A stretch of 64,000 nt of DNA from an uncultured delta proteobacterium (GTDB taxonomy: Bacteria > Desulfobacterota > Binatia > DP-6), in contig CAWFFN010000012.1 in NCBI GenBank assembly GCA_963815115.1, positions 32,001-96,000 on the forward strand, in the 5' to 3' direction. The notes beneath the pieces were generated by a model. The model worked only from the letters and a program-made list of their open reading frames with translations, did no database searches and had not been told where the DNA came from. Position numbers and translations under genes: made by a program. Below, in pieces: positions 25,273 to 52,821 of this stretch (within the stretch, counting starts at the first letter, position 1; every line of letters begins with the position of its first letter).

Positions 25273-25950
25273 CTATGCCGGCGTGGGGGCGCGCAGACCG
25301 CCGGCCGCCTCCCTGCGCGCGAAGAACCACTGCTTCACCACCTCGACCGCGACGAGGTAGACGGCCGTCATCGCCGCGATGATGGCGTAGAGCCCGATGG
25401 GCGGCTGCACGAACCCGAACGCCCGCCCGATCGGCGTGAGCGGCAGAAGCGCCGCGATCGCCACGACCGCGAGCGAGGTCGCCGCCAACCACGGACTCGG
25501 GATGCTCCGCCACGGGCGGCCGCGCGTGCGGATGACGAAGATCACGAGGATCTGGGTCGCCATCGACTCGATGAACCACCCGGTCTGGAACAGCGCCTCG
25601 TGCGCGTGCAGCCAGAGGATCAGGAGGGCGAAGGTCGCGAAGTCGAAGACCGAGCTCACCGGACCGATCGTCCACATGAAGTCGCGCACGAACCGCATGT
25701 CCCACTGCCGCGGGCGGGCGACCTCGCCCTCGTCCACCTGGTCCATGGGGATCGGCACCTCGGAGACGTCGTAGAGCATGTTGTTGAGCAGGATCTGCAC
25801 GGGCAGCATGGGCAGGAAGGGCAGGAAGACCGCGGCGGCGGCCATGCTGAACATGTTCCCGAAGTTGGAGCGCGCGTCGAGATCCGCGAGGGTGCGCCCG
25901 AGCGGCGTGCACCACCAGGCGTCTTCCGGCTCGGGGAGCGCGTCGGCCAT
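25273..25950 (-). pseudogene. Internally deleted MgtA-like P-type ATPase (first ~27 aa fused in frame to C-terminal TM region)
   Basis: SNFGNMFS...[18 protein letters not shown]...FQTGWFIES...FVIRT is the MgtA C-terminus; no DKTGT, TGES or GDGxND; only 225 aa. Confidence 0.8.
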
Positions 25951-26029
25951 CGCGTCCTCGCCCTGGCCAGCCCCGAGACGGCTCCAGCGGCCCGGCCGGT
26001 GTCGAGGCCGGGTCGCGCTGGCGCCGGCG

Positions 26030-27493: not shown

Positions 27494-27502
27494 GGGAGGG
27501 AT

Positions 27503-27518
27503 AGCACGCGGCATGCCC
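27503..27518 (-). promoter_or_regulatory. sigma54 promoter
   Basis: GGGCATG-CCGC-GTGCT; predicted +1 ~27492, coincident with ATG 27493. Confidence 0.55.
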
Positions 27519-27614: not shown

Positions 27615-27630
27615 TGGCACGGTGCCTGCT
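27615..27630 (+). promoter_or_regulatory. sigma54 promoter of ACAD-synthase-ACC-PPTase operon
   Basis: TGGCACG-GTGC-CTGCT; predicted +1 ~27641, ATG 27649. Confidence 0.7.
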
Positions 27631-27648: not shown

Positions 27649-29325
27649 ATGGCCCTCGATCACGAGACGCTGGACGCGAGCATCGCGGCCCTTCGCGAGT
27701 TCGCGTCGCGCAGGCTCCCTGACGGGATCCTCCTCGATCTCGATGCCCGCGACGAGTTTCCGGGCGATCTGATCCGGGCGATGTACGGTCCGGAGCTGGG
27801 CATCCACCTCTTCTTCATTCCCGAAAACCATCACGGCATGGGGGCCAGCGCGTTCGATCTCTCCCGTATCTGTGAAGAGCTGGCCCGCATCGACCTCGGA
27901 ATCGCGACCGGTGTCCTGGCAACCTTCCTCGGCAGCGAGCCGCTCCGCGTCGGCGGTACGCCGGAGCAGCAGGCCCGCTGGATGACCCGCATCGCCGACG
28001 AGGGCCTGTTGATGGCCTATGCCGCGACCGAGCCGGCGGCGGGCAGCGACCTGGCAGCGCTCCGCAGCACTGCGGCGCGGGTCGAGCGGGACGGCGTCGT
28101 GGTCGGCTACCGGATCACGGGCAGCAAGCAGTGGATCAGCAACGGCGGGGTCGCCGATCTCTACTGCGTCCTCGCCAGCGCGCCTGGCGGTCCGTCATGG
28201 TTCGTGGTCGAGCGCGGTGTCGATGGGCTGGCGCAGGGCAAGCCGGAGGACAAGCACGGCATCCGCGCCAGCAATACCGCCGCGCTCACCTTCGAGGACG
28301 TCTTCGTCGACGCGGACCGGCTGATCGGAGGCGTGGAGGGGCAGGGGCTGCTCCAGGCCCAGGCGGTGTTCGGCTACACCCGGCTGATGGTGGCCGCTTT
28401 CGGACTGGGTGCCGGGTGGGCGGCGCTCGACCGCGCGATTCCCTACTCGACGCAGCGGGTCCAGGCCGGCAGCCCGCTCAGCGAGAAGCAGGGCTATACC
28501 CACAAGCTCATCGTGCCGCACGTGGTCCGCCTGGAGGCGGCACGCGCCTACATCGAGGAGGTCGCCACCCGCCTTGACGCCGGCGGCGGCACGCTCATTA
28601 CAGAGGGTGCCATCGCCAAGTATCTCGCCACCGAGGCCGGTAACGCAGCGGCGGATGCCTCCATCCAGGCGCTCGGCGGCTATGGCTATACCCGCGAGTA
28701 TGTGGTCGAGAAGATCAAGCGCGACGTGCGCATCACCACAATCTACGAAGGCACCTCCGAGATCATGGAGATGACCATCGGCCGCGACCGCTGGCAGGAG
28801 CATCTGAAGACGCGCGGTGAACACTATCATCGCGCGGGCCGCGATCTGGAGGCCCTGCACGGCCGGCAGCCGGCGGTGGGCGCCGGCATGGCGGCGCTCG
28901 CGCTCCACGCCCTCGCCGAGGTCCTCGAGCGGGCGCGGCTGGCCCGCCTCACCCGCCACCAGCACGTCCTGCTGCGCCTGGGCGAGCTCATCGCTCACGC
29001 CGAGTGCTGCGCGAGTGCCGCGGGCCGGGCCGCGGCCGCGGCCGCGGGGACCCTCGACCCCCGTGCGCACGTCCGCTTCGACGCCGCCACGCAGGCCGCG
29101 ATCGCCCGGATCTACGCCCGGGAGACGGCGCTCAGGATCGCGAGCGACGGCCTCCGCCTGGTCTGCGGCGCGAGTCCGAACGGCGCCGCCGAGGCCGGTC
29201 CGCTCGCCGCCGCGCTCCGGCTGCCGACGATCCACGCCGCCCAGGCAGGGCTGCTGGTCGATCTCGGTCTGGTCGCGGATTCGCTCTACGGGCGGGGCGG
29301 CGTGCCGGCCCAGGCAACCGCCTGA
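27649..29325 (+). CDS. Acyl-CoA/acyl-ACP dehydrogenase with C-terminal helical extension
   Basis: [43 protein letters not shown] (catalytic Glu). Confidence 0.9.
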
Positions 29326-29345
29326 CGGAAAGGCGGGGAGGATCG

Positions 29346-32300
29346 ATGGACGACACGGCTCACCGCGCCATCGCCGTCGTGGGGCTCGGCGCGATCCTCC
29401 CGGACGCCCCCAGCGTCGCGGCGTTCTGGCAGAATCTCTGCGACGGCCGCTACAGCATCGGGGCGGTCCCGGAAGGTCGCTGGGACCCGGGCCTGTACTA
29501 CGATCCCGATCCCGCCGTTCCCGACAAGACCTACTCGAAGATCGGCGGCTGGGTGCGCGAGGCGCCGTGGGCCCCCGTCGAGTGGAAGCTGCCCATCCCT
29601 CCGCGGGTCAGCGACGCCATGGACGAGGGCCAGAAGTGGGCCATCGCCTGCACCCGCCAGGCTCTGGACGATCTGGCCGAGTCGGGGCACGGCCTCGATC
29701 CCGAGCGCACGGCGGTGGTGCTCGGCAACGCCATGGCGGGGGAGAAGCACTACCTCACGGTGTTGCGCATCCAGTTCCCGGAGTTTGCCGACGAGCTGGC
29801 GAAGGCGCCGAGCTTCGGCGCGCTGCCTCGCGCGGCGCGCGACGCCATCCTGCGCGAGCTCCACGCCGGGGTCGCGCACCGGCTCCCGGAGATCACCGAG
29901 GACACCATGCCGGGCGAGCTCGCCAACTGCATCGCCGGGCGGATCGCCAACCTGTTCAACTTCCGCGGCCCGAACTACGTGGTCGATGCGGCCTGTGCGT
30001 CCGCGCTCGCCGCCATCAGCGCCGCCGCCGAGGGGCTCATCGAGGGCGAGTACGACGCCGTCGTCGCCGGCGGCATCGATCGCAACATGGGCGCGTCGTC
30101 GTTCACCAAGTTCTGCAAGATCGGTGCGCTCTCCGCGACGGGCACGCGGCCCTACGCCGACGGCGCGGACGGCTTCGTCATGGGTGAAGGCGCGGCGGTC
30201 TTCGTGCTGAAGCGGCTCGCCGACGCCGAGCGTGCGGGCAACCGCGTCTATGCGGTCATCCGCGGCCTCGGCGGCTCGAGCGACGGCAAGGGCAAGGGCA
30301 TCACTGCGCCGAATCCGGTCGGACAGCGTCTGTCCATCGAGCGCGCCTGGCGCAATGCCGGACTCGCCCCGGCGACGGCGACCTACGTCGAGGGGCACGG
30401 CACCTCCACCCGAGTCGGCGACCTCGTCGAGGTGCAGAGCCTGAGCGAGGTGTTCGCGGCGGCGGGAGCGGCGCCGGGGACGATCGCGCTCGGCTCGGTG
30501 AAGTCGAACATCGGCCACCTGAAGGCCGCCGCCGGCGCGGCCGGGCTGCTCAAGACGGTCCTCGCCCTGCATCACGAGATGCTGCCGCCGAGCCTGCACT
30601 GCGAACGTCCGAACCCCGGCATCGACTTCGCGGCTTCGCCGTTCCGTGTGAACACCGCGGGGCGCCCGTGGGAGGTCCGGAGCGACGAGGTCCGCCGCGC
30701 CGGGATCAGCGCCTTCGGGTTCGGGGGCACCAACTTCCACGCCGTCGTGGAGCAGTTCGTCCCCGGGCGACTCGACGGCACGAGTCGCCGGAGTCGCGTG
30801 GTCAGCGCCGGCGTGCCGGCGGCGCCCCCGGATGCCGCGATGCCCAGGCCTCCGCTGCGCGGAGCGCTGGTGCTGGGCGCGCCGTCGGTGGCGGCGCTCG
30901 CCGAGCGCGTGCGCACGGTCGCCGGCGAGGCCGGTGCCGGCGTCGCGCCGGCGCCCGCACCGCCGGAGGAGGTCGACCTGCGCCAGCCCGAGCGCCTCGC
31001 GATCGACTACGGCGACGCGGCCGAGCTCGCCGACCGGGCGGCCAGGGCACTCGACGCCCTCGCCAGCGATGCGCCCGCGGCCTGGAAGGCGCTCCGCGCC
31101 CAGGGGATCTTCCGCGGCCACGGTGCCGCGCCCAAGGTCGCCTTTCTCTATACCGGGCAGGGCTCGCAGTACGTGAACATGCTGAAGGGGCTGCGCGCGG
31201 CCGAGCCGATCGTCGCCGACACCTTCGCGCTCGCCGACCGCGTGATGAGCCCGCTGCTGGGCCGGCCGCTCACCGATTACATCTTCGCCGCCGAAGACGC
31301 CGAAAGCATCGCGAGCGCCGAGGAGGCGCTCAAGCAGACAGCGGTGACGCAACCCGCCGTGCTGGCAGCCGACGCCGCGCTCACGCGCCTGCTCGCTGCC
31401 TACGGCATCGTGCCCGATCTGGTGATGGGACACAGCCTCGGCGAGTACGGCGCACTGGTCGCGGCGGGTGCCTTGCCGTTCGAGGATGCCCTCGAGGCGG
31501 TGAGCGCGCGCGGCCGCGAGATGACGAGCCTCACGATCGAGGACTGCGGTGCGATGGCCGCCGTGCTGGCACCCCTGGACGAGGTGGAGCGCATCCTCGG
31601 AGGCGTCGAGGGGTACGTCGAGATCGCGAACCTGAACAGCACCAAGCAGTGCGTGATCGGCGGCGCGACGGCGGCCGTCGAGCGCGCGATCGCCGCGGTG
31701 CAGGCCGCGGAGTACACGGCCATCCCGCTGCCGGTGAGCCACGCCTTCCACACCCGCATCGTGGCGCCGGCGAGCGAGCCGCTGCGCCTCGTGCTCGGGC
31801 GGCTCCGGCTCCAGTCGCCGACGCTGCCCATCGTTGCCAACGTGAGCGGCGAGTTCTACCCCATGGGCCCCGGGGTGGCGGCCGAGATGGTCGACATCCT
31901 CGGCCGCCAGGTGGCCTCGCCGGTCCAGTTCGTGAAGGGGCTGGAGACGCTGTATGCGGCCGGCGCGCGCGTCTTCGTCGAGGTCGGCCCCAAGCGCGCG
32001 CTGCAGGGCTTCGCCGACGACGTCCTCGGCGGCCGGCCGGACGTCGTCTCGCTCTTCACCAACCACCCCAAGCTGCCGGACGCGGTCGCCTTCAATCAGG
32101 CGCTGTGCGGGCTCTACGCCGCCGGCCTCGGGGTCGGCCGCGCCGCGCCCGCTCGCGTCCGCGACGTCGCCACCGCGGCCGCGGCGGTCCCCGCTCCCGC
32201 GCCGCTCGTGGCGCCCGCGGCGCACCTGCCGGTCGCGGCGCCCGCGGGCGAGGTCCCGGCCGAGACGCAGCGCGCGCTCGGGCGCCTCGCCCTCGCGTTT

Positions 32301-35300
32301 CTCGAGCGGGCGTCCGGCCTGATCCCCGGGGCGGCGCACGCGCAGGTGCCGGTCGTCGTCACCGGGGCGGCGCTCGGTCTCCCCGGCACCGAGCACGTGT
32401 TCGACGACGACAACGTCGGACAGCTGCTCCACGGCGCGCAGCTGATCGACGTCATTCCGGCGCGCTTTCGCCACGCGATCCTCGACAAGCACATCACGCG
32501 GCTGGTGAAGAGCGACGAGGGCGGCCACTTCGAGGTGATCGAGCACGAGAGCGACGTGCTCAAGCTCGCGGCCCGCGGCGGGGCGTTCGACCTCGGGGCG
32601 GAGTTCGGCGTCCCCGCCGAGCGCCTCGGCGCCCTCGACCGCACGACGCAGCTCGCCATCGGCGCGGGGATCGACGCCCTGCGCGATGCGGGCATCCCGC
32701 TCGTGATGCGCTATCGCACGACCAGCAAGGGCACGCGCCTGCCAGAGCGCTTCGAGCTGCCGGAGCCGCTCCGTGACGAGACCGGCGTCATCTTCGCATC
32801 GGCCTTCCCCGGCTATGACGCCTTCGCCGCCGAGCTGGCCGACTACCACTCCGACCGGGCGCGACGCGAGGAGCTGGCGCTGCTGGAAGGGTTGCGCACC
32901 CGGCTCGCCGAGTCGGCCAACGGCCACGACCTGTCCGTCACGGAGGTGGACCGGCTGATCCACGACCGCCGGACGGCGATCGAGCGGCAGCCCTACGCGT
33001 TCGACCGCCGTTTCCTGTTCCGCGTCCTCTCCATGGGGCACTCGCAGTTCGCGGAGCTGATCGGAGCGCGCGGGCCGAACACGCAGGTGAACGCCGCCTG
33101 CGCCAGCACGACGCAGGCGCTGGGGCTGGCGGAGGACTGGATTCACGCCGGCCGGTGCCGCCGCGTCATCGTCATCGCCGCCGACGACGTCACCAGCGAC
33201 CACCTGCTGGAGTGGTTCGGCGCTGGCTTCCTGTCGACGGGTGCCGCCGCCACCGACGACGTGATCGAGGAGGCCGCGCTGCCCTTCGACCGGCGCCGGC
33301 ACGGCATGATCCTCGGCATGGGCGCGGCGGCCATCGTCGTCGAGCACCCCGACGCCGCCCGCGAGCGCGGCATCCAGCCAGTCTGCGAGGTCGTGGCCAC
33401 CGTCACCGCGAACAGCGCCTTCCACGGGACGCGGCTCGACGTCGAGCACATCGGGCAGGTGATGGAGCAGGTCGTTGCCTGCGCCGAAGCGCGCACCGGC
33501 ATCCCGCGCGCCGTCATGGCGCCGCAGCTCATGTTCGTCTCGCACGAGACCTACACGCCGGCACGGGGAGGCAGCGCCGCGGCCGAGGTCCACGCCCTGC
33601 GCCAGACCTTCGGTGCGAACGCCGAGCGGATCGTGGTGGCGAACACGAAGGGATTCACCGGACATCCGATGGCGGTCGGCATCGAGGACGTGGTCGCCGT
33701 CAAGGCGCTGGAGACCGGGCTGGTGCCACCGGTCGCGAACTTCAAGGAAGTCGACCCGGAGCTCGGGCCGCTGCACCTCTCCCCCGGCGGCGCCCACGAC
33801 ATCGAGTGGGCGCTGCGTCTGGGCGCGGGCTTCGGCTCGCAGATCAGCATGGTGCTGCTGCGGCGGACGCCGCTCGCCCGCGAGACGCGTCCCGCGCCGG
33901 ACGAGCTCGGCTACGCCTCCCGCGTCATCAGCGCTGCTGCGTGGCGGGAGTGGCTGGCCCGCATGAGCGGCGAGGCGAGCCCCGAGCTCGAGGTCGTCGC
34001 CCGCACGCTCCGGGTGAAGGAGCGTGCGGGCGCCGCACGTCCGGTCGCCGTGGCGGCCGTGGCATCCCCGTTGCCCGTGCCCGTCGCTGCGCCGGCGCCG
34101 GCGGCCGTCGATCCCGTGGAAGCGCGCGTGCTCGCGGTCGTGGCGGAGAAGACCGGCTATCCGCCGGACATGCTCGCGCTCGACCTCGACCTCGAGGCCG
34201 ATCTCGGCGTGGACACCGTCAAGCAGGCCGAGACGTTCGCGGCGGTGCGGCAGGCGTACGACATCCCGCGCGACGACAAGCTCAAGCTGCGCGACTTCCC
34301 GACCCTCGCCCACGTCATCCAGTTCGTCTACGACCGCCGGCCCGACCTGGTGGCGGCGAGGGCCGCCGTGCCCGCCGCGGCGCCGGCGCCGGCGGCGGGA
34401 GCCGTCGCGGAGCGTGACGAGGTCCGCGAGCGGGTGCTCGCGATCGTGGCGGAGAAGACCGGCTATCCGTCGGACATGCTCGCGCTCGACCTCGACCTCG
34501 AGGCCGATCTCGGCGTGGACACCGTCAAGCAGGCCGAGACGTTCGCGGCGGTGCGGCAGGCGTACGACATCCCGCGCGACGACAAGCTCAAGCTGCGCGA
34601 CTTCCCGACCCTCGCCCACGTCATCCAGTTCGTCTACGACCGCCGGCCCGACCTGGTGGCGGCGAGGGCCGCCGTGCCCGCCGCGGCGCCGGCGCCGGCG
34701 GCGGGAGCCGTCGCGGAGCGTGACGAGGTCCGCGAGCGGGTGCTCGCGATCGTGGCGGAGAAGACCGGCTATCCGTCGGACATGCTCGCGCTCGACCTCG
34801 ACCTCGAGGCCGATCTCGGCGTGGACACCGTCAAGCAGGCCGAGACGTTCGCGGCGGTGCGGCAGGCGTACGACATCCCGCGCGACGACAAGCTCAAGCT
34901 GCGCGACTTCCCGACCCTCGCCCACGTCATCCAGTTCGTCTACGACCGCCGGCCCGATCTCGGACAGGGAGCGGGCGCGGCGAGTGACGACACGACATCG
35001 CGCGCTCCGGCCGCGGCGCCGGTGCCGGACCTCCGCATCCGTGCGCGCGTTCCGCGTCGCGTGCCCGTACCGGTGCTCCGGCCCGGGCTCGACCTCTGCG
35101 TGCCGACGGGCGTGACGCTGACGGGGGGGAGCCGTGTCCTCGTCATGGCGGATGGTGGTGGGGTCGCGGAGGCGCTGGCAACGCGCCTCCGCACCGAGGG
35201 AGTCACCGCGCTGGTGGTGGACGATGCGCCTGCGGCCGAGACGCTCGAGCAGCGGGTGCTGGGCTGGCTCGCCGACGGACCGATCCAGGGCGTCTACTGG

Positions 35301-37535
35301 CTGCCCGCGCTCGACGGCGACCCCGACCTCGCCGAGATGGACATCACTTCCTGGCGCGAGGCGCTGCGCGTGCGGGCGAAGCTCCTGCACGTCGTGCTGC
35401 GCCTCGTCGACGCGGGCATGGAGGAGCCCGGCCGCTTCCTGGTGGCGGCGACGCGACTCGGCGGACGGCACGGGTACGACGACGTCGACGTCCCCGCGCC
35501 GATGGGCGGCGCGGTGACGGGGCTGGTGAAAGCCTATCGCCGCGAGCGCGCGGCGCTCGTGAAGGCCGTCGACTTCGAATCCACCCGCGCGCCGGCGGAG
35601 ATCGCGGACGTGCTGGTGGCCGAGACGCTCGCCGACCCCGGGGCGGTGGAGATCGGCTACGCGGGCGGGTTGCGCTGGACGGTGGGCCTCGCGGACGCCC
35701 CAGCCGCAGATGGCCAGCCCGGCCTGGTCCTCGGCCGCGAGACGGTGTTCGTGGTGACCGGCGCGGCAGGCGGCATCGTGTCGGCCATCGTGGCGGACCT
35801 TGCCGCCGCCTCGGGTGGCAGCTTCCACCTCCTCGACCGGGTACCCGAGCCGAAGGAGGACGATCCCGACGTTGCCCGGCTCGATCGTGACCGCGACGGC
35901 CTCAAACGTGACCTCGCCGAGCGCCTGCGGGGCCGGGGCGAGCGGCCGACTCCAGCCCTCGTCGAACGTGAGCTGGCTGCGCTCGAGCGGGCGCAGACGG
36001 CGCTCGACGCGCTGCATGCCGTCCGCCGGGCGGGCGGAACCGCGTCCTACCACGCCGTCGATCTGCTCGACGCCGCCGCGGTCGCCGGGGTGGTCGACGA
36101 GATCCGGCGGCACCACGGCCGCATCGACGTCCTGCTCCACGCGGCGGGGCTCGAGGTGAGCCACCTGGTCGGACAGAAGCCGGCCACGGAGTTCGACCGC
36201 GTCCTCGACGTGAAGTGCGACGGCTGGTTCAACCTGATGCGCGCCGCCGCCGACCTGCCGATCGGCGCGGCGGTCGCTTTCAGCTCCATCGCCGGCCGCT
36301 TCGGCAACCGCGGCCAGACCGACTACAGCGCCGCCAACGACCTCCTCTGCAAATGGACCGCGAAGCTCCGGACCGTGCGACCGGCGATGCGCGCGATCGC
36401 CATCGACTGGACCGCCTGGTCCGACATCGGCATGGCCTCGCGCGGCTCGATCCCGACCGTGATGGCGGCAGCCGGGATCGACATGCTGCATCCGGACGAC
36501 GGCATCCCGATCGTGCGCGCGGAGCTGACGGCGGGCGGGACGCGGGGCGAGGTGGTGATCGCGGACCGCCTGGGCGTCCTCGTCGAGGAGTGGCACGCGA
36601 CGGGCGGACTCGACCCGGCCCGGGCCGAGCGTCTGGTGCAGGAAGCGGGGGGCCCGGTGCTCGGGTCGGTCGTCGAGATGGGCGTGCACGGCGGCCTCGC
36701 GGTCGAGACCATCCTCGACGCGCGACAGCCATTCCTGGGCGATCACCGCATCGACGGCACCCCGGTGCTCCCCGGTGTCATGGGCATCGAGGCGTTCGCG
36801 GAGGTGGCGGCGCTGCTCGTGCCCGGGTGGCACGTGCACGGCGTCGAGGACGTGCACTTCCTCGCCCCCTTCAAGCTCTACCGGGACGAGCCGCGCGCGG
36901 CGCGGATCGAGGCGACGCTGCGCGCGGACGGCGACGGCCTCCTCGCCGACTGCCGTCTCCTCGGCAGCCGGAAGCTTCCCGCCCAGGACGCGCCGCAGGT
37001 GACGACGCACTTCACCGCCCGCATCCGCCTCCGGCGCCCGGCGCCCGCGGTCGAGCACGCCGAGCCGCCCCCGCCGCCCAACGGGCGCGCGGTCACGGCC
37101 GAGGACATCTATCGCGTCTACTTCCACGGCCCGGCCTACCGCGTCCTCGAGCGCGTGTGGCGCGACGGCGACCGCGTCGTCGGGCTCATGGCCCGCGGGC
37201 TCCCGCCGGACCGCCTGCCCGCGGGATGCCGCACCCGTCTGGCTCCCCGCCTGATCGAGCTCTGCTTCCAGACCGCCGGCATCGCCGAGCTCGCGCGCAC
37301 GGGCCGCATGGGCCTGCCCGAACGCATCGAGCGCGTCGTGCCAGGGCAGCCGGACGAGGAGACCGACGAGCGGCTCTTTGCCGTCGTCAGCCGGCGGGCC
37401 GACGGCGCCTTCGACGCGCACGTCGTGGACGGGGCCGGGACCGTGCACGTCGCCCTGCACGGCTACCGCACGGTCGAGCTCCCGGCGAGCGTTGCCGACG
37501 CGCAGATCGCCGCGCTCCAGGCCGTCGCCGGGTGA
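29346..37535 (+). CDS. Iterative type I PKS/FAS-like synthase, KS-AT-KS-ACP-ACP-ACP-KR-DH (2729 aa), PfaA-related
   Basis: KS1 DAACAS/HGTST/KSNIGH; AT GHSLG and HAFH (malonyl); KS2 NAACAS/SHETYT/TKGFTGH; ACPx3 DLEADLGVDTVK; KR TGAAGGI, YSAAND; DH HRIDGTPVLPG; no ER or TE. Confidence 0.9.
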   Translation: MDDTAHRAIAVVGLGAILPDAPSVAAFWQNLCDGRYSIGAVPEGRWDPGLYYDPDPAVPDKTYSKIGGWVREAPWAPVEWKLPIPPRVSDAMDEGQKWAIACTRQALDDLAESGHGLDPERTAVVLGNAMAGEKHYLTVLRIQFPEFADELAKAPSFGALPRAARDAILRELHAGVAHRLPEITEDTMPGELANCIAGRIANLFNFRGPNYVVDAACASALAAISAAAEGLIEGEYDAVVAGGIDRNMGASSFTKFCKIGALSATGTRPYADGADGFVMGEGAAVFVLKRLADAERAGNRVYAVIRGLGGSSDGKGKGITAPNPVGQRLSIERAWRNAGLAPATATYVEGHGTSTRVGDLVEVQSLSEVFAAAGAAPGTIALGSVKSNIGHLKAAAGAAGLLKTVLALHHEMLPPSLHCERPNPGIDFAASPFRVNTAGRPWEVRSDEVRRAGISAFGFGGTNFHAVVEQFVPGRLDGTSRRSRVVSAGVPAAPPDAAMPRPPLRGALVLGAPSVAALAERVRTVAGEAGAGVAPAPAPPEEVDLRQPERLAIDYGDAAELADRAARALDALASDAPAAWKALRAQGIFRGHGAAPKVAFLYTGQGSQYVNMLKGLRAAEPIVADTFALADRVMSPLLGRPLTDYIFAAEDAESIASAEEALKQTAVTQPAVLAADAALTRLLAAYGIVPDLVMGHSLGEYGALVAAGALPFEDALEAVSARGREMTSLTIEDCGAMAAVLAPLDEVERILGGVEGYVEIANLNSTKQCVIGGATAAVERAIAAVQAAEYTAIPLPVSHAFHTRIVAPASEPLRLVLGRLRLQSPTLPIVANVSGEFYPMGPGVAAEMVDILGRQVASPVQFVKGLETLYAAGARVFVEVGPKRALQGFADDVLGGRPDVVSLFTNHPKLPDAVAFNQALCGLYAAGLGVGRAAPARVRDVATAAAAVPAPAPLVAPAAHLPVAAPAGEVPAETQRALGRLALAFLERASGLIPGAAHAQVPVVVTGAALGLPGTEHVFDDDNVGQLLHGAQLIDVIPARFRHAILDKHITRLVKSDEGGHFEVIEHESDVLKLAARGGAFDLGAEFGVPAERLGALDRTTQLAIGAGIDALRDAGIPLVMRYRTTSKGTRLPERFELPEPLRDETGVIFASAFPGYDAFAAELADYHSDRARREELALLEGLRTRLAESANGHDLSVTEVDRLIHDRRTAIERQPYAFDRRFLFRVLSMGHSQFAELIGARGPNTQVNAACASTTQALGLAEDWIHAGRCRRVIVIAADDVTSDHLLEWFGAGFLSTGAAATDDVIEEAALPFDRRRHGMILGMGAAAIVVEHPDAARERGIQPVCEVVATVTANSAFHGTRLDVEHIGQVMEQVVACAEARTGIPRAVMAPQLMFVSHETYTPARGGSAAAEVHALRQTFGANAERIVVANTKGFTGHPMAVGIEDVVAVKALETGLVPPVANFKEVDPELGPLHLSPGGAHDIEWALRLGAGFGSQISMVLLRRTPLARETRPAPDELGYASRVISAAAWREWLARMSGEASPELEVVARTLRVKERAGAARPVAVAAVASPLPVPVAAPAPAAVDPVEARVLAVVAEKTGYPPDMLALDLDLEADLGVDTVKQAETFAAVRQAYDIPRDDKLKLRDFPTLAHVIQFVYDRRPDLVAARAAVPAAAPAPAAGAVAERDEVRERVLAIVAEKTGYPSDMLALDLDLEADLGVDTVKQAETFAAVRQAYDIPRDDKLKLRDFPTLAHVIQFVYDRRPDLVAARAAVPAAAPAPAAGAVAERDEVRERVLAIVAEKTGYPSDMLALDLDLEADLGVDTVKQAETFAAVRQAYDIPRDDKLKLRDFPTLAHVIQFVYDRRPDLGQGAGAASDDTTSRAPAAAPVPDLRIRARVPRRVPVPVLRPGLDLCVPTGVTLTGGSRVLVMADGGGVAEALATRLRTEGVTALVVDDAPAAETLEQRVLGWLADGPIQGVYWLPALDGDPDLAEMDITSWREALRVRAKLLHVVLRLVDAGMEEPGRFLVAATRLGGRHGYDDVDVPAPMGGAVTGLVKAYRRERAALVKAVDFESTRAPAEIADVLVAETLADPGAVEIGYAGGLRWTVGLADAPAADGQPGLVLGRETVFVVTGAAGGIVSAIVADLAAASGGSFHLLDRVPEPKEDDPDVARLDRDRDGLKRDLAERLRGRGERPTPALVERELAALERAQTALDALHAVRRAGGTASYHAVDLLDAAAVAGVVDEIRRHHGRIDVLLHAAGLEVSHLVGQKPATEFDRVLDVKCDGWFNLMRAAADLPIGAAVAFSSIAGRFGNRGQTDYSAANDLLCKWTAKLRTVRPAMRAIAIDWTAWSDIGMASRGSIPTVMAAAGIDMLHPDDGIPIVRAELTAGGTRGEVVIADRLGVLVEEWHATGGLDPARAERLVQEAGGPVLGSVVEMGVHGGLAVETILDARQPFLGDHRIDGTPVLPGVMGIEAFAEVAALLVPGWHVHGVEDVHFLAPFKLYRDEPRAARIEATLRADGDGLLADCRLLGSRKLPAQDAPQVTTHFTARIRLRRPAPAVEHAEPPPPPNGRAVTAEDIYRVYFHGPAYRVLERVWRDGDRVVGLMARGLPPDRLPAGCRTRLAPRLIELCFQTAGIAELARTGRMGLPERIERVVPGQPDEETDERLFAVVSRRADGAFDAHVVDGAGTVHVALHGYRTVELPASVADAQIAALQAVAG
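34128..34957 (+). repeat. 306-bp tandem repeat encoding the three ACP domains
   Basis: TGGCGGAGAAGACC at 34141, 34447 and 34753; period-306 identity appears perfect over 34165-34957. Confidence 0.92.
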
Positions 37536-40500
37536 GCGACATGCGAGACCAGTTCGGCCGCATCGCGGTCGTCAACCGCGGCGAGGCCGCGATGCGGCTC
37601 GTTCACGCCGTCCGCGAGCTCAACCACGAGCACGGCACGGCGATGCGGACGATCGCGCTGGTCACCGAGCCCGATCGGGCGGCCATGTTCGCCCGCGAGG
37701 CCGACGAGGTGCACGATCTCGGCCCCGCGCTGTACGACGGGCCGGGCGGCCGGCGCTCCGCCTACGTCGACCTGGAACGGCTCGAGCAGGCGCTCCGTGC
37801 CACCCGCGCCGACGCGGCATGGGTGGGCTGGGGCTTCGTCGCCGAGCGCGCCGAGTTCGCCGAGCTGTGCGCGCGGCTCGACGTGGTCTTCATCGGACCG
37901 AGCCCGGCCGCGATGCGGCTCCTGGGCGACAAGATCGCCGCCAAGCGGCTCGCCGAGCGCGCCGGCATCGCCGTGGTGCCGTGGAGCGGCGGCGCCATCC
38001 GGACGCCGGCGGACGCGGTCGAGCACGCGCGCGCGCTCGGCTTCCCCCTCATCCTGAAGGCGGCGGCGGGCGGCGGCGGGCGTGGCATCCGCGAGGTCGG
38101 CAACGAGGCGCAGCTGCTCGCCGCCCTCGAGCCCACCGCCAGCGAGGCGGCGCAGGCCTTCGGCGACGGCACGCTCTTCCTCGAGCGGCGGGTCGCGGCC
38201 GCGCGGCACGTCGAGGTGCAGGTGGTGGCCGACCGCCACGCGACCGTGTGGGCGCTCGGCGTCCGCGACTGCACGCTCCAGCGCCGCCACCAGAAGGTGG
38301 TCGAGGAATCCCCCTCGCCGGCGCTGTCCGCGGCGGAGGACGCCATCCTGCGTGCGGCCGCGGTGCGGCTGGCACGCGCCGCCGGCTACGAGAACGTGGG
38401 GACCGTCGAGTTCCTCTTCGACCCGGTGGGCCGGGAAGCCTGGTTCATGGAGGTGAACACGCGCCTCCAGGTCGAGCACCCCGTGACCGAGTGCACCACG
38501 GGCAGCGATCTCGTGAAGCTCCAGCTTCACGTCGCCCTGGGTGGCAGGCTCGAGGGGGACCCTCCGGCGGTGCGTGGCCATGCCATCGAGGTCCGGCTCA
38601 ACGCGGAGGATCCGGAGAACGGGTTTGCCCCGGCGCCCGGCCAGGTCGAGCTGCTCCGCCTCCCCGGTGGTCCGGGCATCCGTGTCGACCGCGGCGTGGA
38701 CGAGGGCGATCGCATCGCGCCGCAGTTCGATTCCATGATCGCCAAGATCGTCGCCCACGGCGCCGGCCGCGGCGAGGCGCTTGCCCGGCTGCGCCGGGCA
38801 CTCGCCGACACCACCGTCGTGGTCCGCGGCGGCGCCACCAACCGGGCCTTCCTCCTGGGCCTCCTCGACCGGCCCGAGGCCGCCCGCGGCGACTACGACA
38901 ACGGCTGGCTCGATCGGCTGGTCGTCGAGGGCGCGCACCTGCCGCACGGAGGCGTCGAGATCGCGTTGCTCGCGGCGGCGGTGGAGGTCTACGAGGCAGA
39001 AGCGACGATCGAGGTGCGCGGCTTCCTCGCCTCGGCAGCGCGGGGCCGTCCCGCGGTCCCGCCAGACATCGGGCACGCCGCCAAGCTCCGGGTGCATGGA
39101 GTGACCCACGCCGTCGAGGCGCGGCGCCTCGGGCCGCACGCCCATCGCGTCACCGTCGAGGGGCGCACGATCGCCGTGGGCGTGGAACGGGTCGGCTCCT
39201 TCGAGCGCTGGCTCACCGCCGGCGGGCAGCGCCACCGCCTCGTCTCGGTCAGCGACGGCGAAGCGTATCGCATCGAGGTCGACGGGGTTCCCCACCGTAT
39301 CGGACGCGACGAGGGCGGCGTGGTGCGAGCGCCTGCGCCGGCGATGGTGCTGTCGATCGCCGTCGGACCCGGCGACCTGGTCGCGGCGGGGGACCGTGTC
39401 GCGGTGCTCGAGGCGATGAAGACCGAGATCCCGATCCTTGCGCCGGTCGCAGGGCGCGTGCGGAGCGTGCTGGTGACCGCCAACCTCCAGGTGGATGCCG
39501 GCGCCCCGCTGCTCGTGCTCGAACCCACCCAGGCCGCGGCGGACGAGCGTGCCGGCGACGGCCTCGCCCTCGACCGGCTCGTTTCCACGCCGCGCCCGAC
39601 GGGTTCGGCCGACGCGCGCCGCGAGGCGCTCGAGACGCTGCGGCAGCTCATCCTCGGGTTCGACGTGGAGCCGGCCGACGCGCGCCGCCTGGCGGCGGAG
39701 TGGTCCCGGGCCGGAGACGACGCGGAGCTTCGCCGGGCGGAGGACGATCTGCTCGACCTCTTCGTCGACGTCCATTGCGTGTTCGACCATCGCGGGATCG
39801 ACGACGAGCCGGAGGAGCCGGGATCGGTGAGCGCCCAGGAGTACGTCCTGAGCTACCTGCGCACGCTCGATGCGGAGAGCGGGAACCTGCCCGGATGGTT
39901 CGTCGAGCGGCTGCGCCGGGCGCTTGCCCGACACGGCGTGCACTCCCTGGAGCGCTCGGCGGCACTCGAGGCCAGCTGGGTTCGCCTCTTTCGCGCGCAC
40001 CAACGCGTGGAGGAGCAGGTGCCGGTGGTCATGCGCATCCTCGAGCGGCGTCTGCAGGCGGTCCCCGAGGAGGGAGCGGAGGGATCCGCGGCGATGCTCG
40101 ACCGCATGGTCGCGCTCGGCGGCGCCGCACACCCGGCGCTCGCCGATCTGGCGCGGGAGCTGCGCTACCGCTGGTACGATCGGCCGCTGTTCGAGCAGAC
40201 GCGCGCCGCCGTCTACCGCCAGGTGGAAGCCCACCTGGCGGCCCTCGCCAGCCCCGGCGACTCCGGACGGGCGGAGCACGTCGCCTGGCTCGTCGACTGT
40301 TCCCAGCCGCTCGTGGGGTTGCTCTGCCCGCGCCTCGACCGTGCGTCACCGCCGCTCCGGCGGACGATGCTGGAGGTCCTGGTCCGCCGATACTACCGCA
40401 TCCGCGACCTCCGAGGTCTCGAGTTGAGGGACGTGGGCGGCCGGACGTGCGCCGTGGCCGAGTACGGGTTCGACAATCGCCGCATCCATCTGTTCGCCAC

Positions 40501-43093
40501 CTACGCGGCGTGGGCGGGTCTCGGTGACGCGGCCCGTGCCCTTGGCCGACTCATCGCCGACGTCCCCGCCGAGCACGACGTCGTCGTCGACTTCTTCCTC
40601 TGCCGCGATGGCGCGTCGTCCGAGGATCCGGACGCCGTCGCCGCCGCAGCGCTCGCGGCCCTCCGGGAGGCGGGCTTCCCGCGCGGGCTCCGGCGGATCG
40701 TGGTCATGATCGCGACCGAGGGCCGCCTCGGCATCGGCGACGTGCTCCACTTCACGTACCGGCCCGACGGCGACGGCTATCGCGAGGAGCGCCTGTATCG
40801 CGGCCTCCATCCCATGATGGGCAAGCGGCTCCAGCTCTGGCGGCTGCGCAACTTCGACATCGAGCGACTGCCGTCGGTGGAGGACGTCTATCTCTTCCGC
40901 GCCGTCGCGCAGGCGAACCCGAAGGACGAGCGCCTGTTCGCCCTCGCCGAAGTGCGCGACCTGACGCCTGTCCGGGACGCGGAGGGGCACGTGGTACAGC
41001 TGCCTCACCTGGAACGCGTCCTCGCCGAAGCGCTGGCCGCCATCCGCCTCCAGCAGGCGCAGCGCGCGCCCGACCGCCGTCTCTACTGGAACCGGGTGCT
41101 CCTGCACGTCTGGCCGCCGATGACGCTCACGCCCGACGAGCTGGATCATCTCGTCCGCAAGCTCGCGCCGGGAACGGCCGGGCTCGGCCTCGAGAAGGTG
41201 GTGTTGCGCGCACGCATCCCCGACCCGGCGGGCGGCGAGCTGCGCGACACCATTCTCCAGGTCACCAATCCCGGTGGCCGCGGCTTCACGATCACGGCGC
41301 TCCCGCCGGCGGAGCTGCCGATCCGGCCGCTCACCGAATACGCCCAGAAGGTCGTGCGCCTGCGCCGGCTCGGGCTCACCTATCCCTACGAGGTGGTCCA
41401 CATGCTGACGCCGTCCGAGGGGCAGCGGTCGGCGTTTCCGCCCGGCGAGTTCGTCGAGCACGACCTGGACGCGACGGGACGCCTCGTGCCCGTCGAGCGG
41501 CCGCCTGGCGCCAACACGGTCAACCTCGTCGTCGGCGTGATCCGGAACCGGACGGCGAGCTACCCGGAGGGCATGACGCGCGTGTGCCTGCTCGGCGATC
41601 CGAGTCGCAGCATGGGCGCGCTGGCGGAGGCCGAGTGCCGCCGCATCATGGCGGCGCTCGACCTCGCCGAGACGATGCGGGTCCCTCTCGAGTGGTTCGC
41701 GATCTCGGCCGGCGCGAAGATCTCGATGGAGAGCGGCTCCGAGAACATGGATTGGATCGCCCGCGTCCTGCGCCGCCTGATCGAGTTCACCCAGGCGGGC
41801 GGCGAGGTCAACGTCGTGGTCGCGGGGATCAACGTCGGCGCGCAGCCGTACTGGAACGCCGAGGCGACGATGCTGCAGCATACCCGCGGCGTCCTCATCA
41901 TGACGCCCGAGGGTGCGATGGTGCTCACCGGCAAGCGCGCGCTGGACTACTCCGGGGGCGTGTCGGCGGAGGACAACTTCGGCATCGGCGGCTACGAGCG
42001 CGTCATGGGGCCGAACGGCCAGGCGCAGTACTGGGCTCGCGACCTCGCCGACGCATGCCGCATCCTCTTCCAGCACTACGAGCATTCCTACGTGGCGCCT
42101 GGCGAGCGTTTCCCTCGCCGGAAAGCGACCGCCGACCCGGGCGACCGCGACGTGCGCGATGCGCCTCACGGCGACGGCTTCGTACGCGTCGGCGACGTCT
42201 TCAGCGACGAGTTCAACCCCGGTCGCAAGCGCCCGTTCGAGATCCGCAGGGTGATGGCCGCGACGATCGATCGGGATCGCCCGCCGCTCGAGCGCTGGGC
42301 CGCGATGCGCGACGCCGAGGTCGCCGTGGTGTGGGATGCCCATCTCGGGGGCCATCCGGTCTGCCTGCTCGGGATCGAATCGCGGCCGGTGCCGCGCCTC
42401 GGTCTCGTGCCCGCCGACGGCCCCGAGCAGTGGACGGCGGGCACGCTCTTCCCGCGCGCGTCGAAGAAGGTGGCACGCGCCATCAACGCGGCGAGCGGGA
42501 ACCGTCCGGTCGTGGTGCTCGCCAACCTTTCCGGCTTCGACGGCTCCCCGGAGTCGCTCCGCGAGCTGCAGCTCGAGTACGGAGCGGAGATCGGCCGCGC
42601 CGTGGTGAACTTCGACGGGCCGATCGTCTTCTGCGTGATCTCGCGCTATCACGGGGGCGCCTACGTCGTGTTCTCCAGCGCGCTCAACGCATCGGTGGAG
42701 AGCGCCGCGGTGGAGGGCTCCTACGCCTCCGTGATCGGCGGCGCGCCGGCGGCGGCCGTGGTGTTCGCAGGCGAGGTGGATGCCAGGACACGGCGCGACC
42801 CTCGCGTGGCCGCGGTGGAGGCGGAGGTCGCGGCAGCCGACGGGCCCGAGAAGGCGCGGCGGCGGGCGGCTCTCGCGGAGGTGTGGGCGGTCGTGCACGC
42901 CGAGAAGCTCGGCGACGTGGCGCGCGAGTTCGACCAGGTCCACAGCGTCTATCGCGCGCAGCAGGTCGGCTCGATCCATCGCATCATCCCCGCCGCCGCC
43001 CTGCGCCCATACCTGATCGACGCGGTCGCGCGGGGCATCCAGCGGACGCTCGAGGCGGCGCGGCCACGGACGGCGGAGCATCCGGCGGCATGA
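37532..43093 (+). CDS. Single-chain multidomain acetyl/acyl-CoA carboxylase (BC-BCCP-central-CT, ~1850 aa)
   Basis: BC NRGEAA, GGGGRG, QRRHQK, EVNTRLQVEHPVTE; biotin site EAMK; CT with ANLSGFDGS; GTGA overlap with synthase stop (alternative ATG 37541). Confidence 0.9.
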   Translation: MSDMRDQFGRIAVVNRGEAAMRLVHAVRELNHEHGTAMRTIALVTEPDRAAMFAREADEVHDLGPALYDGPGGRRSAYVDLERLEQALRATRADAAWVGWGFVAERAEFAELCARLDVVFIGPSPAAMRLLGDKIAAKRLAERAGIAVVPWSGGAIRTPADAVEHARALGFPLILKAAAGGGGRGIREVGNEAQLLAALEPTASEAAQAFGDGTLFLERRVAAARHVEVQVVADRHATVWALGVRDCTLQRRHQKVVEESPSPALSAAEDAILRAAAVRLARAAGYENVGTVEFLFDPVGREAWFMEVNTRLQVEHPVTECTTGSDLVKLQLHVALGGRLEGDPPAVRGHAIEVRLNAEDPENGFAPAPGQVELLRLPGGPGIRVDRGVDEGDRIAPQFDSMIAKIVAHGAGRGEALARLRRALADTTVVVRGGATNRAFLLGLLDRPEAARGDYDNGWLDRLVVEGAHLPHGGVEIALLAAAVEVYEAEATIEVRGFLASAARGRPAVPPDIGHAAKLRVHGVTHAVEARRLGPHAHRVTVEGRTIAVGVERVGSFERWLTAGGQRHRLVSVSDGEAYRIEVDGVPHRIGRDEGGVVRAPAPAMVLSIAVGPGDLVAAGDRVAVLEAMKTEIPILAPVAGRVRSVLVTANLQVDAGAPLLVLEPTQAAADERAGDGLALDRLVSTPRPTGSADARREALETLRQLILGFDVEPADARRLAAEWSRAGDDAELRRAEDDLLDLFVDVHCVFDHRGIDDEPEEPGSVSAQEYVLSYLRTLDAESGNLPGWFVERLRRALARHGVHSLERSAALEASWVRLFRAHQRVEEQVPVVMRILERRLQAVPEEGAEGSAAMLDRMVALGGAAHPALADLARELRYRWYDRPLFEQTRAAVYRQVEAHLAALASPGDSGRAEHVAWLVDCSQPLVGLLCPRLDRASPPLRRTMLEVLVRRYYRIRDLRGLELRDVGGRTCAVAEYGFDNRRIHLFATYAAWAGLGDAARALGRLIADVPAEHDVVVDFFLCRDGASSEDPDAVAAAALAALREAGFPRGLRRIVVMIATEGRLGIGDVLHFTYRPDGDGYREERLYRGLHPMMGKRLQLWRLRNFDIERLPSVEDVYLFRAVAQANPKDERLFALAEVRDLTPVRDAEGHVVQLPHLERVLAEALAAIRLQQAQRAPDRRLYWNRVLLHVWPPMTLTPDELDHLVRKLAPGTAGLGLEKVVLRARIPDPAGGELRDTILQVTNPGGRGFTITALPPAELPIRPLTEYAQKVVRLRRLGLTYPYEVVHMLTPSEGQRSAFPPGEFVEHDLDATGRLVPVERPPGANTVNLVVGVIRNRTASYPEGMTRVCLLGDPSRSMGALAEAECRRIMAALDLAETMRVPLEWFAISAGAKISMESGSENMDWIARVLRRLIEFTQAGGEVNVVVAGINVGAQPYWNAEATMLQHTRGVLIMTPEGAMVLTGKRALDYSGGVSAEDNFGIGGYERVMGPNGQAQYWARDLADACRILFQHYEHSYVAPGERFPRRKATADPGDRDVRDAPHGDGFVRVGDVFSDEFNPGRKRPFEIRRVMAATIDRDRPPLERWAAMRDAEVAVVWDAHLGGHPVCLLGIESRPVPRLGLVPADGPEQWTAGTLFPRASKKVARAINAASGNRPVVVLANLSGFDGSPESLRELQLEYGAEIGRAVVNFDGPIVFCVISRYHGGAYVVFSSALNASVESAAVEGSYASVIGGAPAAAVVFAGEVDARTRRDPRVAAVEAEVAAADGPEKARRRAALAEVWAVVHAEKLGDVAREFDQVHSVYRAQQVGSIHRIIPAAALRPYLIDAVARGIQRTLEAARPRTAEHPAA

Positions 43094-43806
43094 CTGGCGT
43101 CGATCCCTCGCGCGGAGCGACCCGTCCGGTCGGGGTCCTCATGGCCCACGTCGGCGAGGTGCCGCCGGGAGACGCCTGGCTCGGAGCGCGGGAGCGCGCG
43201 GTCCTCACCACGCTGCGCTTCCCGAAGCGGCGAGCGGACTGGCGCCTCGGACGCTACGCGGCGAAGCGGGCCGCGGCGGGGTGGCTCGGGCGCCCCACCC
43301 GTCTCGAGGAGCTCGCGGGGCTCGAGATCCTCGCCGACGGGGATGGGGCGCCGCGGCTCCATCTCGAGGGCGCGGCGCGCGTCGCGCTGTCGCTCAGCCA
43401 TCGCGACGCGTGGGGAATGGCGGCGGTGGCCAGCCCCGAGGTGGCGCTCGGGTGCGATCTCGAGCTCGTCGAGCCGCGCAGCGAGCTGTTCCTGGCCGAC
43501 TACCTCACCTCGCGCGAGCAGGCGCTCGTGGCGGCCGGCGACCCGGACGATGGCGTGCGGAGGGCCACCCTCGTCTGGTCGGTGAAGGAATGTGTTCTCA
43601 AGGCGCTCCGCGAGGGCCTGCGCCTGGACACGCGCTCGGTCGAGCTGGCGGAGCGGGCCGGCGAGCCCGTGCGCGGATGGTCGCCCGTGGCGGGGCGCGA
43701 AATCCCGGGCGGTCCGGTCTTCGAGGGATGGTGGCGCCCGTACGGCGCGATGCTCGCCTGCGTCCTCGGAGCCCCCGCGCTCGGAGCGCCGCTCACACTC
43801 ACCTGA
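43090..43806 (+). CDS. Sfp-type 4'-phosphopantetheinyl transferase
   Basis: LSLSH, LGCDLE, WSVKECVLKA; ATGA overlap with carboxylase. Confidence 0.88.
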   Translation: MTGVDPSRGATRPVGVLMAHVGEVPPGDAWLGARERAVLTTLRFPKRRADWRLGRYAAKRAAAGWLGRPTRLEELAGLEILADGDGAPRLHLEGAARVALSLSHRDAWGMAAVASPEVALGCDLELVEPRSELFLADYLTSREQALVAAGDPDDGVRRATLVWSVKECVLKALREGLRLDTRSVELAERAGEPVRGWSPVAGREIPGGPVFEGWWRPYGAMLACVLGAPALGAPLTLT

Positions 43807-43830
43807 GATGCGACGAAGGAGGGACATGGT

Positions 43831-44229
43831 ATGGCACGATCGAAAACAGGTATCTCGCTCGCCGACATCCGCGAGTCCGTGAAGCGGATCCGCGGCGAGG
43901 GGGAGCGCTTCATGGGGCGCATCCGGCGGGACTCCGAGGTCTTCGCTCGCCGGACGCGGGCCGAGGTCGAGGCGGACGCGCGCAAGGTGCGAGACGACCT
44001 GCGAGCCCGGGTGGACAGGTCGATCAAGGATCTGGAGACGCGGGCGCGGAAGGTCGTCCAGACGTTCGAGAAGCAGGCTGGACGGGTGGCCGATGGCGCT
44101 CGCAAGGGGCTCGCCCGCGGCGCGGTCGAGGAGCTGCCGAAGCTCGGGAAGCGCATCCGGGAGCTCGAGCAACGGCTCGAGCAACTCGAGCAGCAGCTGC
44201 GCGCGACGCTCAAGGACACCGCTCCCTGA
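43831..44229 (+). CDS. Helical phasin/apolipoprotein-like protein, possible lipid-inclusion protein
   Basis: 132 aa, highly charged amphipathic/coiled-coil character ending in IRELEQRLEQLEQQL; strong GGAGG SD; function inferred from context. Confidence 0.5.
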   Translation: MARSKTGISLADIRESVKRIRGEGERFMGRIRRDSEVFARRTRAEVEADARKVRDDLRARVDRSIKDLETRARKVVQTFEKQAGRVADGARKGLARGAVEELPKLGKRIRELEQRLEQLEQQLRATLKDTAP

Positions 44230-44366: not shown

Positions 44367-44744
44367 ATGCGCAGACCCCTCGTTCTCGCGGGAGTCCTCT
44401 CCGCAGCGCTCGTCCCCGGTTCGCTCCATGCCGACGTCGCGGCCGGCGCCCGGATGTTCAAGCAGCGCTGCGCCCCGTGTCACTCTCTCGAACCGGGAGT
44501 GCAACGGCACGGGCCCAGCCTGGAGAACCTGATGGGCCGGCAGGCGGGAATGCATCCCGGGTTCGAGTACTCGGAGGGCCTGCCGAGGAGCGGGCTGATC
44601 TGGAACGGGGAGACCCTGGACAGCTGGCTGCGCAACCCTCACGCGGCCGTCCCCGCGGCCGGGATGCCGTTCGAGGGGCTCGAGAACACGACGCAGCGCC
44701 ATGACGTGATCGAGTTCCTCGAGCACGAGGCCGCGCCGCGATGA
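44367..44744 (+). CDS. Class I (c2-like) cytochrome c
   Basis: Signal peptide MRRPLVLAG..., CAPCH, GPSL, GFEYS, AGMPF axial Met. Confidence 0.88.
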   Translation: MRRPLVLAGVLSAALVPGSLHADVAAGARMFKQRCAPCHSLEPGVQRHGPSLENLMGRQAGMHPGFEYSEGLPRSGLIWNGETLDSWLRNPHAAVPAAGMPFEGLENTTQRHDVIEFLEHEAAPR

Positions 44745-52705: not shown

Positions 52706-52739
52706 GCCACCCCGGAAATGCAGACCCCCGGGGGCGAGT

Positions 52740-52812: not shown

Positions 52813-52821
52813 ATCTCCAAC

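Follow-up and report, generated by a model that had tools for sequence, protein, structure and literature searches.

The DNA analysed here, a stretch of 64,000 nucleotides (the window) from contig CAWFFN010000012.1 of an uncultured delta proteobacterium (the host, genome G000), carries an operon headed by an acyl-CoA dehydrogenase (ACAD) and a multidomain synthase resembling PfaA. We tentatively propose that it encodes an inducible, malonyl-CoA-dependent synthase that uses the ACAD as its reductase, with neutral lipid as the store for both carbon and electrons. The ACAD is probably the trans enoyl-ACP reductase (ER) of the synthase, and we lean slightly towards a neutral-lipid fate of the acyl product; taken jointly, the two fall a little short of being evenly balanced. 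The route had originally been predicted to be undescribed. Because its gene set fits Type R, catalogued in 2011 by Shulse & Allen as far as their available text describes it (PMC3098273), the cluster is not, and what is new here is the proposed mechanism, a dedicated ACAD as enoyl reductase, rather than the cluster itself. The operon and its divergent neighbour are:

26030-27514, minus strand: wax ester/triacylglycerol (TAG) synthase (WS/DGAT), divergent, 134 nt from the operon; TIGR02946 461 bits, cut-off 310
27649-29325, plus strand: ACAD, 558 aa
29346-37535, plus strand: synthase, 2729 aa
37532-43093, plus strand: single-chain acyl-CoA carboxylase (ACC), 1853 aa
43090-43806, plus strand: 4'-phosphopantetheinyl transferase (PPTase), 238 aa, with family profile matches
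43831-44229, plus strand: small open reading frame (ORF), amphipathic helical, weakly phasin-like, 132 aa

The gaps between the five genes are, in order, 20, -4 (GTGA), -4 (ATGA) and 24 nt. The ORF coordinates thus bear out the five co-oriented genes, the GTGA/ATGA overlaps, the gaps of about 20 nt and the divergent WS/DGAT of the original prediction.

Linkage of the ACAD to the synthase

The pairing of the two genes is kept across the family. The original prediction gave the ACAD no part in the pathway, although no other gene accompanies the synthase as constantly. Of 75 genome loci fetched, most of them from Acidobacteriota, 69 were evaluable, and in 65 of these the ACAD sits 5' of the synthase. 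When the search was started from the ACAD, the synthase was found 3' of it in 66/66 evaluable metagenome loci (80 fetched), and it followed the ACAD in 6/6 further genomes with close ACADs; these counts of close ACADs leave out stand-alone ACADs of 48-58% identity. Four such stand-alone sisters (L199, L200, L201 and L202) have no synthase nearby in 4/4 regions, and a match to the enoyl reductase FabI is missing in 2/4 of their genomes (here and below, the presence of FabI, FabZ and fatty acyl-CoA reductase was judged by profile or homologue searches). ACADs linked to a synthase (43 rows) fall into a single clade (SH-aLRT 99) separate from the four sisters. Pairwise identities of the first ketosynthase domain (KS1) and of the ACAD are correlated with r=0.93 over 73 loci, a value to which shared ancestry contributes.

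The ACAD has the N, M and C domains and the FAD motifs of its family, with the catalytic Glu367, a residue kept in 62/62 sequences. Its predicted fold is VLCAD-like with a C-terminal helical extension, and none of the NCBIfam equivalog models scores it above its cut-off (AcrC: 217, with a cut-off of 640). A predicted complex of the ACAD dimer (residues 5-465) with one ACP scored 0.48, the best control 0.00; at least 87% of the contacts are shared between runs and the partner has a pLDDT of at least 83. The mark set for this score was reached by 116/157 solved and 2/215 mismatched pairs, and 18 solved pairs and both of the mismatched ones lay past the mark at scores at or below 0.60, so that the modelling lends weak support to an ACAD-ACP complex. 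In three loci (L206:8169-9272, L072 and L139) a gene that is FabH-like by its N-terminal sequence lies 5' of the ACAD, a possible starter-unit enzyme.

Domains and catalytic residues of the synthase

A family profile search gives the synthase the domain order KS1-AT-KS2-ACP x3-psiKR/KR-DH and zero matches to ER and thioesterase (TE) families. The PfaA model TIGR02813 scores 929, below its cut-off of 1010. In the predicted fold of the C-terminal 836 aa (pLDDT 89) the KR didomain carries no inserted ER and a DH region rich in beta structure comes after it, and the model aligns with polyketide synthase (PKS) psiKR/KR didomains across about 530 columns; an ER hidden in this region is ruled out by that fold. 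Profile searches and C-terminal fold together uphold the earlier description of a PfaA-like synthase lacking PfaB/C/D, ER and TE. Three stretches of the synthase are:

32346-33866, plus strand: second KS domain (KS2), FabF-like, Cys-His-His intact in the alignment to FabF; labelled "CLF" in the 2011 description
34110-34964, plus strand: three near-identical ACP domains
36654-37487, plus strand: dehydratase (DH), a domain absent from the available part of the Type R description

The KS1 triad, the AT serine with its HAFH motif and the KR tyrosine are invariant in 42 full-length relatives. The AT had been predicted to be of malonyl type, and this stood: GHS and HAFH, the latter of which we take to be the malonyl-type AT motif, occur in the window synthase and in 42/42 full-length relatives. 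In KS2 the catalytic residues are kept in every variant listed (Cys in 39, the first His in 42 and the second His in 36 of 42 relatives). A reading of this domain as CLF is disfavoured, since Cys-His-His is kept and aligns to FabF at those residues; because the relatives keep it too, the "CLF" label of 2011, rather than the window copy, seems to be the outlier. The number of ACPs is 2-7 in relatives, mostly 3-5. The DH carries its catalytic His in 82/82 sequences and a Glu instead of the usual Asp in 81/81, a His/Glu pairing that is presumably FabZ-like.

According to tblastn the host genome has only one full-length synthase. The cluster is a secondary synthase in the host, because the host has FabZ, FabD-FabG-ACP, FabF and PlsX and most of its relatives do without the cluster. 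In a tree of 54 selected rows the window synthase clusters with that of the congener G003 and not with that of G002, a grouping that points to repeated transfer of the cluster.

PfaD at ACAD-less loci, other enoyl reductases and electron supply

What reduces the enoyl intermediate where the ACAD is missing? Five synthase loci lack it, and it was not found genome-wide in the four ACAD-less genomes searched, nor in G311. At 4/5 of these loci (L064, L068, G042 and G311) the enoyl reductase PfaD lies within about 2.5 kb of the PPTase, while no PfaD stands beside the cluster in any of the fetched ACAD-type loci. PfaD was not found in the host genome either. FabI has no match in the host nor in 3/19 ACAD-type genomes outside the host family, 16/19 of which keep it; within the host family a FabI match is missing from 10/11 genomes (host + ten), with or without the cluster. 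A FabK match in the host is under the cut-off. In the PfaD-type genomes neither FabI nor WS/DGAT was found.

Candidate electron carriers lie directly upstream of the ACAD in many relatives. In genome loci these are EtfA (49/66) and EtfB (49/64), the subunits of the electron transfer flavoprotein (ETF), and an EMO-like CCG Fe-S protein (46/60); in metagenome loci ETF was found in 27/64 and the EMO-like gene in 17/43. The ETF genes of the host are located elsewhere in its genome, and the EMO-like gene occurs in trans in 26/30 ACAD-type genomes without an adjacent module, the host included. Complex I is present in the host. The operon had been called self-contained, which is doubtful because the ACAD would need an ETF encoded away from it. 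A further arrangement was seen in three genomes (window 44741-49275; L079, L208), where pyruvate:ferredoxin oxidoreductase (PFOR) is followed near the cluster by a dihydroorotate dehydrogenase (DHOD)-like flavoprotein (PRK07565); this flavoprotein might pass electrons to the ACAD at loci that have no neighbouring ETF.

Fate of the acyl product

The divergent WS/DGAT of the window has an intact HHxxxDG motif and is one of 11 WS/DGATs in the host genome. Across genome loci a WS/DGAT lies within 10 kb upstream in 24/58, together with AdhE in 23/56, and about one third of the loci share the order AdhE-STAS-WS/DGAT-EMO-EtfB-EtfA-ACAD-synthase-ACC. At least three lineages of the synthase (window, Woeseiaceae and Terriglobia) show the adjacency; the tree used to map it, and the adjacency of ETF/EMO, lacked 3/4 PfaD rows owing to a length filter. 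Anywhere in the genome, WS/DGAT is present in 49/58 ACAD-type genomes. In the Acidobacteriota sample, with the centre genome dropped, it was found in 7/11 genomes with a close ACAD vs 22/239 without (Fisher p=3e-5, which kinship makes look stronger than it is). Roseiflexus, one of those named for Type R, produces wax esters according to the available part of a published account (PMC4400912). For the alcohol moiety, the host has a PRK07201 two-domain short-chain dehydrogenase/reductase, which we take to be of the fatty acyl-CoA reductase type; AdhE was not found in the host.

AdhE-STAS-WS/DGAT head the Terriglobia operon in L004, L007, L018 and 20 similar loci (upstream 0-4.2 kb). There, AdhE could supply an alcohol, possibly ethanol, which would yield natural fatty acid ethyl esters.

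Proposed mechanism and its alternatives

We propose the following cycle. PFOR would deliver acetyl-CoA and the single-chain ACC would convert it to malonyl-CoA, which the AT would load onto the PPTase-activated ACPs for condensation by the two active KS domains. KR and DH would then produce 2-enoyl-ACP, and the ACAD, run reductively with electrons from ETF, would reduce it and close each cycle; ETF itself might be charged from quinol through the EMO-like protein where one is available. Mostly saturated acyl chains would leave the synthase without a thioesterase and be esterified by WS/DGAT to wax esters or triacylglycerol. In the host, sigma54 probably switches the operon on at low oxygen. The observed basis of this scheme is the gene content, the domain set, the catalytic residues, the ACAD-synthase linkage, the PfaD swap and the ETF, EMO and WS/DGAT associations; we infer the reductive direction of the ACAD, ACP as the carrier, the electron source, the release route, the product and the induction.

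Several observations weigh against the scheme. As to the enzyme, the closest PDB matches of the ACAD are ordinary MCADs, and reductive and oxidative ACADs are not distinguishable by sequence. The PfaD-type loci form one clade (100), nested among ACAD types on a long-branch root in the tree of 54 selected rows, and since the four form one clade they amount to a single ACAD-to-PfaD swap. PfaD also occurs on other contigs in 3/9 ACAD-type Chloroflexota and 1/49 other ACAD-type genomes, and G041 (L022) has synthase and PPTase and, genome-wide, neither ACAD nor PfaD, with FabI present. As to the electrons, ETF/EMO adjacency in genome loci does not extend beyond a single clade dominated by Terriglobia and is absent at the window locus. 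Among menaquinone markers the host shows no MqnA/D, no MenD over the cut-off and only a sub-cut-off MenA-like gene, which counts against a simple menaquinol model there. A sigma54 site lies upstream of the ACAD in only 6/75 loci and of the EMO-like gene in 0/56. As to the product, WS/DGAT was not found in 9/58 ACAD-type nor in 4/4 PfaD-type genomes (completeness not given), is adjacent in only 4/21 metagenome loci, and is a background feature of the host lineage, present in 34/38 relatives without the cluster. The metagenome adjacency and the nine genomes rule out WS/DGAT as an obligatory partner. The divergent position seen in the window is not kept in G002 or G003. Off-loading by WS/DGATs, as originally predicted, retains the comparative association in at least three synthase lineages and the enrichment in Acidobacteriota, with a partner that is optional and a background in the host lineage; judged on gene neighbourhoods, the link appears real but optional.

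Could the ACAD instead run oxidatively, desaturating acyl-ACP or a starter acyl-CoA and passing electrons via ETF/EMO to quinone, with an unsaturated or polyene product or with FabI borrowed for reduction? We consider this unlikely, at something near a quarter of our belief. ACADs usually are oxidative; the closest solved sequences here are MCADs; ETF/EMO work either way; G041 combines the synthase with FabI and has neither ACAD nor PfaD; and the His/Glu pair of the DH is unusual. On the other hand, a known ER, PfaD, takes the place of the ACAD where the latter was lost, the host and 3/19 other ACAD-type genomes have no FabI match, and the neighbourhood is fermentative.

About as unlikely, by a shade more, is that the ACAD is the trans ER and the product goes mainly elsewhere, to membrane, glyco-, ether or host-specific lipids, with WS/DGAT recruited secondarily in some lineages. 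This alternative shares all of the ACAD evidence with the neutral-lipid scheme. It would accommodate the 13/63 synthase genomes in which WS/DGAT was not found, the PfaD-type genomes without WS/DGAT and FabI, and the suggestion, in the available text of Shulse & Allen, that Type R end products differ by host (PMC3098273). It fits less well with the WS/DGAT enrichment in Acidobacteriota and with the AdhE-to-ACC gene order conserved in about a third of genome loci. FabI is retained by 16/19 of the ACAD-type genomes that lie beyond the host family, so that FAS II (the type II fatty acid synthase) covers membranes there. That ACAD and ETF are a catabolic beta-oxidation module that remobilises stored lipid and is merely co-regulated with the synthase is very improbable, since the VLCAD-like fold and the patatin in the same island are outweighed by the constant company of synthase and close ACADs (66/66, and 6/6 more genomes), by the 20-nt gap and by the recurrent neighbour clusters examined, which include no hydratase, no hydroxyacyl-CoA dehydrogenase and no thiolase.

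If the scheme of a reductive ACAD and a neutral-lipid product is taken further, Type R might represent a widespread bacterial wax-ester/TAG fermentation coupled to "enoyl-ACP respiration", in which the growing chain serves as terminal electron acceptor under anoxia; we regard this extension as doubtful. Sugar carbon would be condensed on the two-KS megasynthase, and electrons would run through complex I, quinol, EMO and ETF to the ACAD and the growing chain. In textbook stoichiometry, glycolysis with PFOR yields four electron pairs and two ATP per glucose, which equals the consumption of two malonyl-CoA cycles. An NADPH-type ER would leave zero net ATP, whereas proton pumping could cover the cost if quinol fed the ACAD.

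If correct, the proposal would add a new class of trans enoyl-ACP reductase to the biochemistry of fatty acid synthases (FAS) and PKS, and would connect the making of lipids with the way in which common soil bacteria conserve energy anaerobically. It would also offer a means of making acyl chains for wax esters or TAG with four genes only. The doubtful extension, if true, might in addition account for the wax esters found in Roseiflexus mats and help bacteria of soil and peat to survive. Type R has been without an assigned product for over a decade, and a concrete mechanism is now proposed, in which a flavoenzyme of a fat-oxidising family is reversed on ACP. To this the locus contributes the PfaD swap, a WS/DGAT link quantified with controls, the rejection of a phasin gene and the low-oxygen sigma54 setting.

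Comparison with known systems and distribution

In the available text of Shulse & Allen, Type R comprises a PfaA homologue of the order KS-MAT-CLF-ACP(3-6)-KR and a PPTase, its product uncharacterised; in Koribacter an ACC gene lies between synthase and PPTase, and Koribacter, Solibacter, Elusimicrobium and Roseiflexus are named holders (PMC3098273). The window cluster shares the PfaA homologue KS-MAT-second KS-like-3 ACP-KR, the ACC, the downstream PPTase and the lack of PfaB/C/D. That text makes no mention of DH, ACAD, ETF/EMO or WS/DGAT, whereas the window cluster has a DH and a dedicated ACAD. The named Koribacter, Solibacter and Roseiflexus proteins are likened to the window synthase by description, and among the matches listed, proteins of Korobacteraceae and Bryobacteraceae metagenome-assembled genomes match the window KS1 at 65-68%. 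The cluster type is known, and our searches found no characterised pathway or product for it: the literature searched, mostly without subscription journals or supplements, held no Type R product and no ACAD acting as the trans ER of a PKS or FAS.

The Pfa polyunsaturated fatty acid synthase (PfaA-E) has in common with the cluster the PfaA-like KS-MAT-tandem ACP-KR and a PPTase, and PfaD stands beside four ACAD-less relatives. The window cluster differs in having no PfaB, PfaC or PfaD and an extra active-type KS between AT and ACP; the ER role that PfaD has there is proposed here for the ACAD. For the electron path two precedents exist. In the anaerobic wax ester fermentation of Euglena gracilis, as the available text has it, ACAD and ETF reduce enoyl thioesters with respiratory electrons from rhodoquinone, and the route ends in wax esters (PMC6587861). 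It is a reversed beta-oxidation on CoA in mitochondria, whereas the window cluster would use malonyl-CoA and an ACP megasynthase. In Syntrophus aciditrophicus an EMO-ETF-ACAD chain reduces enoyl-CoA (PMC8805022, in the part available), and the same three-part chain stands beside the synthase in Terriglobia relatives; the Syntrophus chain acts on crotonyl-CoA in catabolism, with no synthase or lipid product described in that part. The ACC can be likened, by domain order, to SACE_4237 of Saccharopolyspora erythraea, which has the same single chain of about 200 kDa (BC-BCCP-central-CT); according to the accessible text SACE_4237 is an essential housekeeping ACC (PMC6491548), and that of the window is a cluster-bound accessory.

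Relatives of the cluster are numerous and patchily spread. At least 623 of the 650 stretches matched belong to them, and 7893/8000 scored candidates are ACAD relatives, with thousands of ACAD sequence clusters. Holders are Acidobacteriota, Chloroflexota, Myxococcota, Actinomycetota, Pseudomonadota and Rhodothermota. The ACAD was found in 2/40 host relatives, both of which belong to the genus of the host, and, with an identity threshold of 60%, in 11/250 sampled Acidobacteriota; the synthase is present in 11/301 Chloroflexota.

Low-oxygen setting of the window

The surroundings of the operon comprise the following features:

27615-27630, plus strand: sigma54-type -24/-12 site before the ACAD, one mismatch, starting 34 nt before the ATG
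4388-25915, given without strand: low-oxygen island with Usp, sigma54 activator, protoglobin histidine kinase, CBS proteins, patatin, sulfhydrogenase-like NiFe hydrogenase, acyl-CoA ligase/GNAT and GAPDH
44741-49275, plus strand: PFOR and DHOD-like gene, behind a second sigma54-like site (44329)
50807-61872, given without strand: pyruvate kinase and three further WS/DGATs, bringing the window total to four

Scored with what we take to be the sigma54 consensus, the window holds 9 sigma54-like sites vs a shuffle mean of 1.6 and maximum of 5 (60 shuffles), and across the genome such sites average 2.3 per 64 kb; five of those in the window lie just 5' of an ATG. The site before the ACAD recurs at the same place in G003. 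A single sigma54 promoter had been claimed for all five genes. The sigma54-like site at 27615 is there, and it may drive the whole operon. PFOR lies near the cluster also in G002, G003 and G476, with the DHOD-like gene next to it in G002 and G476. By analogy, the low-oxygen sigma54 island suggests that a neutral-lipid electron sink like that of Euglena may operate here.

Within the island a sigma54 activator stands beside the protoglobin histidine kinase (4898-7542), and similar genes lie near the cluster in G002 and G003; the pair is a candidate oxygen sensor of the island. A remnant of a P-type ATPase C-terminus, recognised from the translation, lies at 25273-26343 between GAPDH and the WS/DGAT. 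Two quinone-related candidates were rejected: an MqnC-like match in the host is CofH, and the methyltransferase at 52774-53481, a candidate for a methylase of rhodoquinone (RquA) or menaquinone, did not pass the cut-off of any NCBIfam model. The F420 biosynthesis genes CofG and CofH and a CofE-like piece are found at L215 (G000 C7:712840-716557).

Carboxylase and 3' end of the operon

The ACC is a eukaryote-type single-chain acyl-CoA carboxylase with the order BC-BCCP-central-CT (ACC_central 73 bits). Chloroflexota have split carboxylase subunits in its place, and some loci lack it. A lone carboxyltransferase piece elsewhere in the host genome (G000 C5:1416798-1418267) shares 60% identity with the C-terminal end of this ACC.

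The 132-aa protein had been predicted to be a phasin-like droplet coat, a claim that did not hold: it scores 23.6 bits against Pfam Phasin (PF05597), below the cut-off of 28.8, has amphipathic helices only, and lies outside the conserved cluster. A homologue was found 3' of the PPTase in 0/25 loci for which 600 nt or more of downstream sequence had been retrieved (three of them second retrievals of the same genome), which rules out a phasin gene as a conserved cluster member. The gene has four paralog matches elsewhere in the host genome and is a host-specific neighbour. Phasin-like paralogs with a sigma54-like site of their own are carried by the near-duplicate stretches G000 C6:3557-11761 and C7:3948-12159, which may be an assembly duplication.

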